64,000 nucleotides of DNA, taken from positions 6,623-70,622 of the forward strand of contig JAOAKO010000002.1 of NCBI GenBank assembly GCA_026413625.1. Reading direction: 5' to 3'. Of the stretch, positions 6,847 to 58,749 are shown piece by piece. This DNA is from Candidatus Micrarchaeota archaeon. Its GTDB lineage: Archaea; Micrarchaeota; Micrarchaeia; CABMEP01. A program made the translations under genes and the position numbers. Within the stretch, counting starts at the first letter, position 1. The number at the start of each line of letters is the position of its first letter. Below the pieces are notes generated by a model that saw nothing but the letters and a program-made list of their open reading frames with translations, searched no databases and had not been told where the DNA came from.

Positions 6847-7196
6847 TGTGGGGTGGGGGGGTTCTATTCCATTATTTTTGGTTTTCTGTAATAAACTCTA
6901 TATGTCCTATTTTTAATTCATAATATTCTATCCAAGGTAAAAATTCTTTCATAAAATCATCTATAATTTCTTTGTTTTTTTGATCAATGAGGAAAATTTG
7001 TTGTTTTTTAAATAATTTTAATTTTATAATTTTGTTTAATTTATTATAATTATAGTAAAATCTCCTTTTAATGTTGTTTAAAATGTTTTTATTCGTGTTT
7101 TTAAATCTAAAAACATATAAAATATACATATTGTAACTTTAGTTACAAAAATTTAAATTAATTTCTATATTACTGGAAGTAAACCCTCTCCCCCTA
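6847..7196. repeat. inverted pair of G-string/GGAA elements (ORB-like) flanking an AT-rich segment
   Basis: Minus-strand reading at 6873-6847 is AATGGAATAGAACCCCCCCACCCC. Plus-strand at 7172-7195 is ACTGGAAGTAAACCCTCTCCCCC. The ~300 bp between them is more than 85% AT and includes the palindrome TGTAACTTTAGTTACA at 7132-7147. Confidence 0.35.
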
Positions 7197-7312: not shown

Positions 7313-9244
7313 TTACTGTTGATTTTTGTTACTATCTTCACTTATTTTTTGTTCTACACCTATATTCTGAATGTATTTGTCAACATTATCTTTATTTTCA
7401 AATCTTTTTGCTTTAGGCAATACAATGCTAAAAACACTTCCTTTACCTACTTCAGAATTAACTATAATATCACTATCATGCAGTTTCATAATTTCTTTAG
7501 CGATCGCCAAACCCAATCCACTACCTTCCTTTTTATATAGCTTAGATATACTGCTTCTTTGGAATCTTTCAAATATCGCCTGCTGTTCCTTTTTAGGTAT
7601 CCCAGGGCCGGTATCGATAACATCGACTTGGATGTTATTTCGATCCTTTTCAAAAGCATTTATAGTGACTGAACCTTTATCTGTAAATTTAATGGCGTTA
7701 TTAACTAAATTCATAAGCACTTGGGCGATTCTTTCAGGATCCCCATAAACTTCCCCCAAACTGTCCGGAGTATTCCATATCAAAGTCAACCCTTTACTTT
7801 CCGCCATATTCCTTAATGAACATTTATCTTCCAAATCTTTGAGTTTAAACGGTCGCTTGTGCAAAGTTATTGCCCCTGCATCTAATTTGGACAAATCAAG
7901 CAAATCATTTATCAACTTGGCAAGACGCTTGGATTCTTTGTCAATTATCTCAGCCGCTTCTTGTTGTTTCGGTGTGTTTGGCCCTAAAACCTTGTTCCTT
8001 AAAAGCGACGCATAACCTTGTATATTTGTTAACGGCGTCTTAAGGTCGTGAGAAACCATACTCACGAATTCGGTCTTCATTCTATTAATTTCAGAAAGAC
8101 GTTTATAATCCTCCTTTAATTTTTCTCTTTCCTCAACCGTCTTATCCTCGCTTTTTTTCTTTTCAGTTATATTTCTTAACGTCATACTGTACTCTATTGA
8201 TGAATTTTCATGCGTCAGAGGCAAAGCACTTACGGCAAAGTAAATCATTTTTCTTTTGTTGTTATATATTCTAAACTCCTTATCTTGAAAACCCTTCCTG
8301 ACTTTCTCGCATTCTGTGAGAGACCTTACAAAAACAGGCATGTCTTCAGGATGTATAATCTGAAATATTGTTGGGTAAGGCTCTTTGTATCCAAGCTGTT
8401 TTTCAAACTGTTTGTTAACAAACTTAAATTTACCATTTTTATCAATTATACAAATAATATCCGTCGTGTTATTAACTATCTGCTCATACTGTTCTCTTAC
8501 AACCCTTATCTCTTCTGCAAGCTTTACTTCCTGGCTTTTATTATTAAATATCAAAATCAAATTTTCCCCGTTAGGTACTATTTTAACCGAAACAAGCAAC
8601 GATCCGTTGTAGATAATACCATCAGTTTCAACCCTAGCATTATTTTCAACACATTCCTTTATCTTTTGGTTAAATTTATTGATCTTCACATAGTCTTTGA
8701 TATTTACATCTTCTTTAATTTCAGGTATAATCTTTCTAGAAAATTCATTGCAGGAGACAACCTTTCCGTTTCTTTTTATTTCAATTATACACATATCTAT
8801 ATTTTCCAATGCCTTAAGTTTTCGGAGAACCATCTCATTCATTTTTTCTTTAGAAACATCAATAAATTCAACTAAGGTTGTAAGGCCCAGGTTAATTTCT
8901 TTAGTCTCAACATTTATTTTTTTTCCATTTGAAAAAAGATGATTATTTTTCAATATTTTACTTATTTTATTTCCTTTAATTTCTTCTTCATTTATCTTAA
9001 ATTCCTGTATAAATCTTTCATTGACAAACAAAATATTTTTTTTATCATCTATTATTACTGCCGGATAATTTAAGTTTTTAAATAAAGTATATAATGAATC
9101 ATTTACAATATGAACATTTCGTATATTCGTTTTCTTTTCAATCTCATTATTTTTTACATTAACATTTTCAAATATTTTTTCATCAGAATCAGCCAAATCT
9201 AGAATGGTAGTTTGTTTATCTTTGTGTTCTATCTCATCTGCCAT
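7313..9244 (-). CDS. PAS-domain sensor histidine kinase
   Basis: H-box SHDLKTPLTNIQGYASLL, N/G boxes (NLVNNAIKFT, DTGPGIP, GSGLGLAIAK), and PAS-like repeats upstream. Confidence 0.8.
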   Translation of the reverse strand: MADEIEHKDKQTTILDLADSDEKIFENVNVKNNEIEKKTNIRNVHIVNDSLYTLFKNLNYPAVIIDDKKNILFVNERFIQEFKINEEEIKGNKISKILKNNHLFSNGKKINVETKEINLGLTTLVEFIDVSKEKMNEMVLRKLKALENIDMCIIEIKRNGKVVSCNEFSRKIIPEIKEDVNIKDYVKINKFNQKIKECVENNARVETDGIIYNGSLLVSVKIVPNGENLILIFNNKSQEVKLAEEIRVVREQYEQIVNNTTDIICIIDKNGKFKFVNKQFEKQLGYKEPYPTIFQIIHPEDMPVFVRSLTECEKVRKGFQDKEFRIYNNKRKMIYFAVSALPLTHENSSIEYSMTLRNITEKKKSEDKTVEEREKLKEDYKRLSEINRMKTEFVSMVSHDLKTPLTNIQGYASLLRNKVLGPNTPKQQEAAEIIDKESKRLAKLINDLLDLSKLDAGAITLHKRPFKLKDLEDKCSLRNMAESKGLTLIWNTPDSLGEVYGDPERIAQVLMNLVNNAIKFTDKGSVTINAFEKDRNNIQVDVIDTGPGIPKKEQQAIFERFQRSSISKLYKKEGSGLGLAIAKEIMKLHDSDIIVNSEVGKGSVFSIVLPKAKRFENKDNVDKYIQNIGVEQKISEDSNKNQQ

Positions 9245-9300
9245 AATATAATTTCAATAATAAGATTTTAATTCTTTTATACTAAGATATATCTGATATT

Positions 9301-10509
9301 ATGGAGATAGATGACCTTAGGTTAGAGCAAGACATTGTTTCTTTTCTTAAAGCTAGGGACAAAGCCATGGAAACAAATGAAATATTGAAAGAATTTTCGA
9401 ATGTTCCGGCAGAAGAAGTCAAGGGAGCACTCGTAAGACTGAAAACAAAAAACAAACTAGAGGCAAGAAACATAGGAAAATTCGATTTTTGGTATGTTTT
9501 AGAGTCAGTCAAGCCTAAAAAAATATTGATAATCGAGGACGATAAAGACATCAACAATCTGATCCGCCTTAGCCTCGGAGAAGAGAATTATGAAATCAAA
9601 TCAGCTTATGACGGAGATGAGGGATTGAAAGAAATAAACATCTTCAAGCCAGATCTAGTCATTTTAGATTTGATGTTGCCTGGTACTGACGGATTAGAAA
9701 TTTGTAAAAAAATAAAGCTAAATGCTGAAACAAAAAATATAATCGTAGTCATAGTATCTGCCGCAGATGCGACAGTCAACAGATTTTTCGGAATTCAATA
9801 CGGTGCCGACTACTACATCAAAAAACCATTCGATCCAATGGAACTAAGGGCGCTTGTCAACATATTCCTGAACAAAAGCGGAGAGCTTTTTGATCCGTTA
9901 GTGGATCTGCCAGATGTGGAAAGATTAGTTAATAATCTGAAGATATACTTGAATGAAGAAAACAGCAAATTCGTCAAGTTAGAGATAGAAGGCATAGCTG
10001 AATATGAAAAAGTATACGGCGAGAAAGCAAAAATGAAACTAGTAAGGCTTATTTCTCAAATGACTCAAGACAAGATAGCGGATTTCAATGAAAAAATTTT
10101 CATCTCATATTTAGGCGATTCGTCATTCGTTCTAGTTTCAGAAAGCGACGTCATATACACTCTACTTTCAGAGCTCGAGGCAGAATTCAGAAGGGTAAAC
10201 CAATTTATAAAACAAAAACAGTTATCTAAATCACTGTATCAAAAATTAGAATCAACAAAAATAGAAAACGACCATCCAATAAGATTGGTATATTATGACA
10301 TAAATATTGACGCCTTCAAGAAGCAGTTTGAACAAACGATAATAAAAGATTATTCAGAAGAAGCAATCAAAGCAAACATCGCAGCGGTAAGAAACTATTC
10401 TCTAGACCAAATAAGAGCTTGCTTTGAGAATTCAAAGAATGTCGACATAACGATCAAAGAAGTGGGCGGAACCTTAAGAATAACCGCAGGAAAGGAAGGG
10501 AAAAGATAG
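9301..10509 (+). CDS. response regulator: wHTH, receiver, then degenerate GGDEF-like domain
   Basis: Receiver domain KKILIIEDDKDINNL...DLVILDLMLPGTDGLEICKKIK. The C-terminal domain follows the GGDEF layout (DPLVDLPDV..., YLGDSSF in place of RxGGDEF). Divergent from the histidine kinase. Confidence 0.65.
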   Translation: MEIDDLRLEQDIVSFLKARDKAMETNEILKEFSNVPAEEVKGALVRLKTKNKLEARNIGKFDFWYVLESVKPKKILIIEDDKDINNLIRLSLGEENYEIKSAYDGDEGLKEINIFKPDLVILDLMLPGTDGLEICKKIKLNAETKNIIVVIVSAADATVNRFFGIQYGADYYIKKPFDPMELRALVNIFLNKSGELFDPLVDLPDVERLVNNLKIYLNEENSKFVKLEIEGIAEYEKVYGEKAKMKLVRLISQMTQDKIADFNEKIFISYLGDSSFVLVSESDVIYTLLSELEAEFRRVNQFIKQKQLSKSLYQKLESTKIENDHPIRLVYYDINIDAFKKQFEQTIIKDYSEEAIKANIAAVRNYSLDQIRACFENSKNVDITIKEVGGTLRITAGKEGKR

Positions 10510-13593: not shown

Positions 13594-13827
13594 ATGAATA
13601 GGAATCTTAAAGGTCAACTCTCCATAGAGTTGATCATAATTCTTGCAATTTTGCTAGGAGTGGTTTTCCTAGTAGCTTCTAAGATGAGAGAATCCGCAAG
13701 CAAGGCAGCGGCATCCATAGACAATACAACTGAAAAGATCCATGAACAGATCGAACAGACAACAGAATCAACAGGAACGGCTGCACCAAGCACCCCACAT
13801 GATATAGGGCACTTTGTTTCACTATAG
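13594..13827 (+). CDS. archaeal type IV pilin-like protein (class III signal peptide)
   Basis: N-terminus LKGQLSIELIIILAIL: a KG|Q cleavage motif followed by a hydrophobic helix. Confidence 0.6.
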   Translation: MNRNLKGQLSIELIIILAILLGVVFLVASKMRESASKAAASIDNTTEKIHEQIEQTTESTGTAAPSTPHDIGHFVSL

Positions 13828-13840
13828 TCCGTGGTGGCTA

Positions 13841-14254
13841 ATGGATGGATTTTTTCAAAGCAAGAAAGGACAGCTATCCATAGAGTTCATTTTAATTTTC
13901 GCTATTTTTCTCTCGGTATTACTTATATTCATAGGGCAGTTTAACAAAATAAAAGACAGAGCCCAAACAGACATACAGAAAAACCTGGTCAGAAAAACTT
14001 CTATAGACATCGAAAATGCAATAAACTCAATTTGCATTTTGGGGGACAATAACATCCGCGAGCTAGATTTTTATTTCTTGGAGAAAACATTCCTAATGAA
14101 AGAAAACGACAGACTAATACTTGCGTCTGATTCAGCAAACGTCACACTGTCTACCAAATGTACGGTTCAGTTTTCATCTCCGCTCGAATTGAACAAAAAA
14201 ATAAAAATAGAAGGAAAAGACAGCACGGTAAAGATATACGCTAAAGACTCATAA
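13841..14254 (+). CDS. archaeal type IV pilin-like protein (class III signal peptide)
   Basis: From the internal Met: MDGFFQSKKGQLSIEFILIFAIFL. Second pilin paralog directly downstream of the first. Confidence 0.55.
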   Translation: MDGFFQSKKGQLSIEFILIFAIFLSVLLIFIGQFNKIKDRAQTDIQKNLVRKTSIDIENAINSICILGDNNIRELDFYFLEKTFLMKENDRLILASDSANVTLSTKCTVQFSSPLELNKKIKIEGKDSTVKIYAKDS

Positions 14255-58564: not shown

Positions 58565-58679
58565 GCGCGGGGTATGGGATTCGAACCCATATACCCTTTC
58601 GGGAACTGGTTTTCCCTTTGTTTAATTAGGGTAAAACAGAAATTCGAGACCAGCGCACTACCAGGTTATGCGAACCCCG
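58565..58679 (-). tRNA. intron-containing class II tRNA, most likely tRNA-Ser (anticodon CGA) with a ~31 nt intron 3' of position 37
   Basis: Acceptor GCGGGGU/ACCCCGC, D-arm, anticodon stem CUGGU...ACCAG interrupted after CUCGAA by a ~31 nt insert (UUUCUGUUUUACCCUAAUUAAACAAAGGGAA), a long variable arm UUCCCGAAAGGGUAU, T-arm AUGGG-UUCGAAU-CCCAU, discriminator G. Confidence 0.65.
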
Positions 58680-58749
58680 CACTGAATATAATATGCACTA
58701 ACTGCTTAAAAATCTTAAGCACAAAAGCATTTAAAAAAAGAAATGCTGA

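Follow-up and report, generated by a model that had tools for sequence, protein, structure and literature searches.

A degenerate GGDEF-like domain on a winged-helix response regulator of a Micrarchaeia archaeon

Introduction

Response regulators with a GGDEF domain are in general absent from archaea (Galperin et al. 2018, PMC5847659). The same census recorded, in Candidatus Micrarchaeum, regulators composed of a winged helix-turn-helix (wHTH), a receiver (REC) and a GGDEF domain, as well as regulators described as 'REC with inactivated GGDEF', and it left contamination open for these Micrarchaeota proteins (PMC5847659). Its Table S3 lists UNLARM2_0239 (EET90385) of Candidatus Micrarchaeum acidiphilum ARMAN-2 as wHTH-REC-GGDEF with a kinase two genes away, and OJI07771 of ARMAN-1 and OJT93977 of AZ1 as 'REC-GGDEF'; one response regulator (RR), and usually one histidine kinase (HK), was counted per Micrarchaeota genome (PMC5847659). 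More than 300 archaeal GGDEF hits, many of them in DPANN and Asgard archaea, were later reported from BLAST searches (Braun et al. 2021, PMC8646023). Here we analyse an RR gene at positions 9301-10509 (+) of a 64,000-nucleotide stretch of contig JAOAKO010000002.1 (assembly GCA_026413625.1, positions 6,623 to 70,622), which we refer to as the window.

This locus combines the wHTH-REC-GGDEF domain order, a Micrarchaeota genome and a nearby kinase, and the window RR is an unusually degenerate member of an already catalogued, uncharacterised Micrarchaeota regulator family. An earlier note on this DNA had presented a GGDEF-like domain on an archaeal regulator as a novelty. That was overstated, as such proteins are already found in Galperin et al. 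2018 (PMC5847659) and in public annotations, where JGI and NCBI name some family members 'GGDEF domain-containing protein' or 'PleD family response regulator'. The features discussed below are as follows, in window coordinates.

9301-10509 (+): response-regulator gene (wHTH-REC-degenerate GGDEF-tail), 402 aa with an ATG start, from the open reading frame (ORF) list
9301-9510 (+): winged helix (wHTH), residues 1-70, from AlphaFold2 (AF2) topology and weak profile matches
9517-9873 (+): receiver (REC), residues 73-191, by PF00072, with the phospho-acceptor Asp123 at 9667-9669
9886-10221 (+): degenerate GGDEF-like core (α0-β1-α1-α2-β2-β3-α3), residues 196-307, from hhalign, AF2 and Foldseek
10114-10128 (+): GDSSF, residues 272-276, in place of GG(D/E)EF on the β2-β3 hairpin, from the alignment register
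10222-10506 (+): C-terminal tail, residues 308-402 (95 aa), conserved in the family
7313-9244 (-): putative cognate sensor histidine kinase, PAS-PAS-HisKA-HATPase_c, 643 aa, by Pfam
9245-9300 (no strand): divergent HK-RR intergenic region, 56 bp, from the alignment of six orthologous spacers

Homology of the C-terminal domain to GGDEF domains

Relatedness of the C-terminal region to GGDEF domains emerged from family profiles. Neither the full window protein nor its isolated C-terminal region matched PF00990 at E≤10 (gathering score 23.8 bits), and single-sequence Pfam and NCBIfam scans of that region found no GGDEF, so family profiles were required. The C-terminal 212 aa had one relative only in a word-indexed database of 5.8 billion proteins. 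An exhaustive HMMER search of 1.84 billion representatives gave 19 matches, 13 of which belong to the same family (wHTH-REC-C-terminal domain, or fragments of it). Four of the remaining six were scanned and all were GGDEF by the Pfam threshold (E 7e-8 to 4e-15), and GGDDF, or a motif close to it, is found in most of the six. With the family profile, Pfam-valid GGDEF proteins were recovered from the 1.84e9 representatives at E 5e-5 to 1e-3.

Profile-profile comparison gave the same picture. Aligned with true GGDEF domains in hhalign, the family C-terminal profile reached a probability of 99.0% and a pairwise E of 4e-18 over 110 columns, and the result was the same with 14-sequence and 81-sequence family profiles. 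In this register FDPLVDLPD falls on nPLTxLPg, LEIEGIAEYEKVYGEKAKMK on DIDxFKxYNDxYGfxxGD, and YLGDSSF on gHiGGDDF, a three-motif correspondence that is far beyond chance. A hidden Markov model built from six true GGDEF domains scored the window ORF at 53 bits. When the C-terminal domains of the 81 full-length orthologs (391-418 aa) were scanned singly, 45 matched PF00990 at E≤0.1 (best 1.6e-6), and any other Pfam family was matched by at most three of the 81. Adenylate/guanylate cyclase, the Cas10 palm and the PucR-type GGDEF_2 were not among the Pfam matches of these 81 members. Diguanylate cyclases were also the best PDB sequence matches of the family profile (6eib, E 4e-4; DosC, E 3e-3; then 3mtk and DosP).

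One unrelated candidate came from a two-sequence profile, which matched the luminal domain of the (pro)renin receptor ATP6AP2 (E 3e-4). Profiles of 14 and 81 sequences no longer gave this match, and chance is its most likely source. The alignment had spanned window 9871-10155 (RR residues 200-285) and the vertebrate luminal domain, including LELxGLDExxxxYGE.

The predicted structure agrees with the profile register. We used an AF2 model built from a 15-sequence alignment, with a mean predicted local distance difference test (pLDDT) of 78.9 and a predicted template modelling score (pTM) of 0.74; a model from a 2-sequence alignment (pLDDT 43.6) was unusable. The receiver (residues 73-191) is canonical. 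In residues 206-307 the model shows a β1-α-α-β2-β3-α3 arrangement at pLDDT 77-90, with strands at 223-230, 267-272 and 275-280 and helices at 232-239, 241-262 and 284-307, and GDSSF sits on the β2-β3 hairpin, as the signature does in GGDEF domains. In a Foldseek search of the PDB, the top 15 matches were all REC-GGDEF chains (WspR 3bre, E 4e-14; PleD; DgcR), aligned over 285-475 columns and ranked above every receiver-only structure.

Detectable GGDEF homology is limited to the first ~110 residues of the domain (α0 to α3). No relatives of the tail (residues 308-402) were found in the PDB or Pfam, and its similarity to the second half of GGDEF domains in hhalign was not significant (E 0.41). 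In the AF2 model the tail has a pLDDT of 39-65 and a strand and helix order that would fit β4, two inserted helices, α4 and β5. It may be the second half of the GGDEF fold, diverged and interrupted by a helical insertion.

Loss of active-site residues

The active site is degraded throughout the family, in patterns that differ between clades. Catalytic positions are numbered here by PleD, with the register taken from family profile alignments and counts made over the 81 orthologs. The five signature columns contain N54/G13, S31/G26, D50/S10, D43/E20 and F81, which gives N[GS]D[DE]F in most members and G[D/E/N]SSF in the window clade. The equivalent of the metal-binding D327 on β1 is Arg or Lys in 63 of 81 members (R39/K24) and acidic only in the window clade (E228 in the window). 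At the guanine-binding positions, the N335 equivalent is Ala in 60 of 81 and E236 in the window, and the D344 equivalent is I38/M24/V8, with M245 in the window. The positions of the RxxD I-site (263-266, five residues upstream of the signature) read N-E-K-I in the window and show no conservation across the family.

The metal ligands have thus been lost in complementary fashion: the window clade is acidic at the D327 equivalent but carries GDSSF, and the main clade has DD or DE in the signature but Arg or Lys at the D327 equivalent. Because the signature and the D327, N335 and D344 equivalents are lost in differing patterns, no clade retains a full catalytic set. Cyclase activity of the window RR is very unlikely on these residues, which agrees with the earlier note's reading of GDSSF and adds to it the loss of the guanine-binding Asn/Asp and of the RxxD I-site. 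We note that the window protein is not, on this basis, evidence for the synthesis of cyclic di-GMP (c-di-GMP) in archaea.

Other parts of the domain have been maintained. The FDPLxDLP entry motif and one polar face of α2 (R249, S252, Q253, Q256, D257), both invariant, are about as well conserved as the receiver, suggesting that the GGDEF remnant retains a function other than catalysis.

Winged helix and receiver

The N-terminal domain has the topology of a winged helix. AF2 places helices at residues 5-19, 25-31 and 37-49 and strands at 53-58 and 61-67 (pLDDT 80-95), an H-H-H-β-β order over residues 1-67. A 78-sequence N-terminal family profile matched CodY, ArsR/SmtB (Rv0081, SmtB), BlaI/MecI, TFE and Zα winged helices in the PDB at E 7e-4 to 0.05, and individual family members matched many different wHTH Pfam families in this region. 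The N-terminus of the window protein itself gave only a weak wHTH-type match in Pfam, with none above the curated cut-off. Together, these results identify a generic wHTH of no named family, and it is present in all complete orthologs.

The receiver is recognised by PF00072, which matches residues 75-186 at E 2e-25 (89.6 bits against a 30.2-bit cut-off). Since E79, D80, D81, D123, S153, Y172 and K175 are invariant in 81/81 orthologs, it is very probably phosphorylated. NCBIfam and PDB sequence searches with the window protein matched the receiver only, with PleD models covering residues 74-187, and the NCBIfam scores were all far below their cut-offs. An assignment to the OmpR/PhoB family, the JGI name of two relatives (P0001, P0034), was rejected: there is no Trans_reg_C match, and only the REC fits OmpR/PhoB models.

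The architecture proposed in the earlier note, a wHTH of ~70 aa followed by a receiver and a degenerate GGDEF-like region, is borne out by AF2, Pfam PF00072 and hhalign, and its three diguanylate-cyclase motifs keep the register it gave them when the family profile is aligned with true GGDEF domains. The structure comparison it had suggested also favours this architecture, given the 15 REC-GGDEF regulators at the top of the Foldseek list. Its claim of a GGDEF-like C-terminal domain stands for the first ~110 residues; the last ~95 aa, with no detectable relatives outside the family, are unassigned. A lack of GGDEF similarity (E>1) in profile searches, which the note had named as the result that would speak against it, is what the single sequence gives, and it does not persist at the family level (hhalign 99%, PF00990 in 45/81).

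Distribution and origin of the family

A scan of one genome per GTDB species recovered at least 178 relatives, nearly all from Micrarchaeota. Taxonomy and locus counts given here cover the best 80 of these, which come almost entirely from Candidatus Micrarchaeota/Micrarchaeia metagenome-assembled genomes (MAGs), plus the closed chromosome of Candidatus Micrarchaeum sp. A_DKE. The closest loci, from hot-spring Micrarchaeia MAGs at 82-85% identity, keep the gene order of the window (TopA, small ORF, HK, divergent RR, DUF192, PsmB, aCPSF1). The alignment of the A_DKE ortholog with the window protein is full-length, and its locus has an HK-x-RR layout, with one membrane-protein gene between kinase and regulator. 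No second REC or GGDEF-like gene was found in the flanks of the 80 loci, and the window holds one of each.

Some family members come from bins with other labels: one from Aenigmatarchaeota (L008), four from Marsarchaeota (L011, L026, L045, L047), one from Iainarchaeum (L040) and one with the bacterial label Candidatus Acidoferrum (L081). Labelling or binning errors would explain these cases; otherwise the family is not confined to Micrarchaeota. The locus labelled Aenigmatarchaeota keeps the RR-PsmB-aCPSF1 synteny of the window.

At the start of the window lies the 3'-terminal part of an archaeal 23S rRNA (1-421, +), and archaeal housekeeping genes lie near the RR (geranylgeranyl reductase, thymidylate kinase, Pth2, topoisomerase IA, proteasome β, FttA/aCPSF1 and an Obg-like GTPase). 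Because both the rRNA and these neighbours are archaeal, the host is an archaeon, as the earlier note had assumed, and the window is a Micrarchaeia (DPANN) contig. We reject bacterial contamination on the basis of this contig content, the conserved synteny and the closed A_DKE chromosome. Synteny and presence in a closed genome indicate that the regulator is genuine, which answers the contamination doubt of 2018: a bacterial-type REC-GGDEF regulator is here a genuine, vertically conserved archaeal gene. Among true GGDEF proteins, the nearest in the profile search were bacterial REC-GGDEF proteins from Chloroflexota, Candidatus Acididesulfobacter and Deltaproteobacteria, a pattern that fits descent of the RR from an ancient bacterial acquisition.

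Kinase pairing and intergenic spacer

The kinase (7313-9244, -) and the RR are transcribed divergently from either side of the 56-bp spacer, in keeping with the pairing with a PAS histidine kinase proposed in the earlier note, and about 60 of the 80 related loci have an HK within ~1-3 kb on the upstream side of the RR. The kinase is predicted to be cytoplasmic because no segment reaches transmembrane-grade hydrophobicity (maximum 1.37 in 19-residue Kyte-Doolittle windows). The ATG start of the window RR is conserved in five aligned orthologous loci (L002-L006).

Across six orthologous spacers, a TTTAATT core (9267-9273) and TTTTATAC (9275-9282) are invariant. Searches for operators yielded only TATA-like AT boxes, the TTTAATT core and a GGCGATC element. 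We read the spacer, tentatively and from its sequence, as back-to-back TATA-type promoters for leaderless mRNAs.

Of 71 distant orthologs, 20 (L010, L011, L015, L018, L020 and 15 others) have the GGCGATC element at a constant -9/-10 relative to the RR start codon; it is read as a Shine-Dalgarno-like ribosome-binding site. The window clade does not have it and shows a TATA-like box ~20-26 nt before the ATG, suggesting leaderless mRNAs, so the two clades may initiate translation differently.

Proposed function and alternatives

We consider it probable that the window protein is a lineage-typical Micrarchaeia RR, a phosphorylation-controlled transcription factor in which the dead GGDEF domain serves as a scaffold or regulatory module. 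The PAS kinase would phosphorylate Asp123, and this would change how the protein oligomerises or packs its domains, as happens in WspR, PleD and DgcR. Output would be DNA binding by the wHTH, and hence transcriptional control, rather than c-di-GMP synthesis. The dead GGDEF domain and the tail might act as a dimerisation, scaffold or secondary-input module, because the polar face of α2 and the FDPLxDLP motif are under strong constraint. Such a protein could have arisen when an ancestral micrarchaeon acquired a bacterial REC-GGDEF regulator, which was then fused to a wHTH and inactivated.

Several observations weigh against this interpretation. No conserved operator or palindrome was found among spacer inverted repeats, in the alignment of orthologous spacers or by k-mer enrichment upstream of the 71 distant orthologs, so DNA binding by the RR is something we infer. 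Each wHTH profile match is also weak on its own (best specific E ~7e-4). The domain may be an incomplete GGDEF fold, because its last 95 residues were modelled poorly and have no homologs. The acidic pair kept by most members (N[GS]D[DE]F) would make residual nucleotide or metal binding possible there, and the role we assign to the GGDEF remnant is deduced from its conservation. Components of c-di-GMP signalling were looked at in 64 kb of genome, and others elsewhere in the genome are possible.

An alternative that we regard as unlikely is that the wHTH does not bind DNA and the RR acts through protein-protein contacts, for example in the control of pili or host-attachment machinery. Most archaeal two-component systems signal through protein-protein interaction according to Galperin et al. 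(PMC5847659), and the window has a gene for a pilin-like protein with a class III signal peptide at 13814-14254. The S/T-rich membrane protein between HK and RR in A_DKE would also suit such a role, as would the lack of an operator motif in the spacer and upstream of the 71 distant orthologs. However, the census counts the Micrarchaeota RR as HTH-containing, and wHTH-REC regulators such as LtrR are taken as transcription factors (PMC5847659). The N-terminal profile, moreover, matches bona fide DNA-binding wHTH repressors.

The membrane protein of A_DKE deserves separate mention. Its gene, at 8296-9315 (-) of that locus (L066), encodes 339 aa that are rich in Ser and Thr and begin with a hydrophobic segment. 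The product probably resides at the cell surface and may be a target or partner of the two-component system.

Degenerate GGDEF domains often act as receptors. The C-terminal domain might thus bind a nucleotide second messenger (c-di-GMP, another cyclic di- or oligonucleotide, or GTP/ATP) that gates the RR alongside phosphorylation, as in PopA, PelD or the ATP-binding GGDEF of GdpP/YybT. The strongly conserved polar residues of α2 and the acidic pair at the signature in most members are consistent with this, and BLAST surveys find GGDEF proteins in DPANN and Asgard archaea (PMC8646023). However, the RxxD positions (263-266) are not conserved, neither guanine-contacting Asn/Asp equivalent is kept, and the acidic pair is replaced by SS in the window clade. 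Nor does the window, or the flanking DNA of the 80 loci, hold a second GGDEF gene, and the census lists no other GGDEF in Micrarchaeota. We consider this explanation improbable.

More speculatively, the dead GGDEF domain and the 95-aa tail could form a new ligand- or partner-sensing module, or the N[GS]D[DE]F members could retain an unconventional nucleotidyl-transferase activity; we hold either proposal to be doubtful. If the first were true, the sole two-component RR of Micrarchaeota would integrate phosphorylation with a second signal, such as a host-derived nucleotide or metabolite, in the control of transcription during episymbiosis. Under the second, DPANN archaea would have their first signalling enzyme of this kind.

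That the RR is an active, non-canonical nucleotidyl cyclase of the PleD/WspR type with a variant active site is highly improbable. The fold and the REC-GGDEF order do resemble those of WspR and PleD, typical members carry N[GS]D[DE]F, and NCBI calls one member 'PleD family'. However, no clade has the full catalytic set, the N335 and D344 equivalents are lost in all members, and the second half of the domain, with its phosphate-binding Lys and Arg, is not recognisable. Galperin et al. likewise judged the domain inactivated (PMC5847659).

Finally, the idea that the GGDEF resemblance is spurious, reflecting an unrelated lineage-specific α/β domain, or that the gene is bacterial contamination in an archaeal bin, draws on the window protein's own failure to match PF00990, the (pro)renin receptor match of the two-sequence profile (E 3e-4) and the possibility raised by Galperin et al. 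(PMC5847659), but it is essentially refuted by hhalign (99%), by PF00990 matches in 45/81 members and by diguanylate cyclases as top PDB matches in both sequence and fold, with the renin-receptor match lost in deeper profiles and the gene lying on the same contig as archaeal 23S rRNA and housekeeping genes, in conserved synteny and, in A_DKE, on a closed chromosome.

Micrarchaeota are tiny symbiotic archaea with genomes of ~1 Mb that typically encode one kinase and one RR in the census. Given one HK and one RR per genome, this regulator is probably the main phospho-relay output of Micrarchaeota, and it may govern their response to host or environment. For annotation, the window subclade escapes the GGDEF models of Pfam and NCBIfam and would be labelled only 'response regulator'. 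The value of the family lies in a defined experimental target, in the Candidatus Micrarchaeum A_DKE co-culture, and not in a new principle.

Other features of the window

The geranylgeranyl reductase gene (546-1808) directly follows the 23S rRNA 3' end (1-421, +). A search with Rfam gave no 5S rRNA in the whole 64 kb, and 5S appears to be unlinked from 23S. It did call a 115-nt tRNA at 58566-58680 (-; 44 bits), which is absent from the ARAGORN output and is probably an archaeal tRNA with an intron. An 85-aa ORF (6872-7129, -) that belongs to no Pfam family is located between the TopA and kinase genes; proteins with 36-55% identity occupy the same position in six related loci (L002-L007), which indicates a real, small conserved gene. 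The neighbours of the RR also include a 146-aa pilin-like protein (13814-14254, +), ~3 kb downstream, with an archaeal class III (type IV pilin-like) signal peptide.

Comparison with known systems

The top structural matches, WspR (3bre), PleD (1w25, 2v0n) and DgcR (6zxb), share with the window RR a REC followed by a GGDEF-fold domain, a DxLTxLP-type entry motif, a β1-α-α-β2-β3 core and a signature on the β2-β3 hairpin. Unlike them, the window RR has no GG(D/E)EF, guanine-binding Asn/Asp or RxxD I-site, the second half of its GGDEF domain is unrecognisable, and it has an extra N-terminal wHTH. The bacterial REC/HAMP-GGDEF proteins of the GGDDF type that are its nearest true GGDEF relatives (P0014, P0016-P0020) share F-x-G-H/F-h-G/N-G-D-D-F-V-I and NPLTxLP with it. 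In contrast to the window RR, these keep DID, YND, GD and GGDDF, pass the Pfam threshold, are bacterial and have no wHTH.

A catalytically dead GGDEF fold also serves as a regulatory or binding module in PopA, PelD, GdpP/YybT and CsrD. Those of them that bind c-di-GMP use an intact RxxD I-site, whereas the window RR has no RxxD. YybT is cited by Braun et al. (PMC8646023).

Among archaeal regulators, LtrR of Methanococcoides burtonii resembles the window RR in having an N-terminal HTH before the receiver and a cytoplasmic kinase partner (PMC5847659). Proteins of this type end after the REC, without a GGDEF-like module, and the likeness is one of domain order. Compared with the Candidatus Micrarchaeum-type regulators, the window clade is more degenerate (G[DEN]SSF in place of N[GS]D[DE]F) and escapes detection by Pfam, and the window kinase is directly divergent from the RR, unlike the ARMAN-2-type layout. 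The closest described counterpart is EET90385 of ARMAN-2, going by its description in Table S3: the two proteins agree in phylum, in the order of their three domains, in the verdict of an inactivated GGDEF, in being a single RR and in having a kinase one or two genes away.

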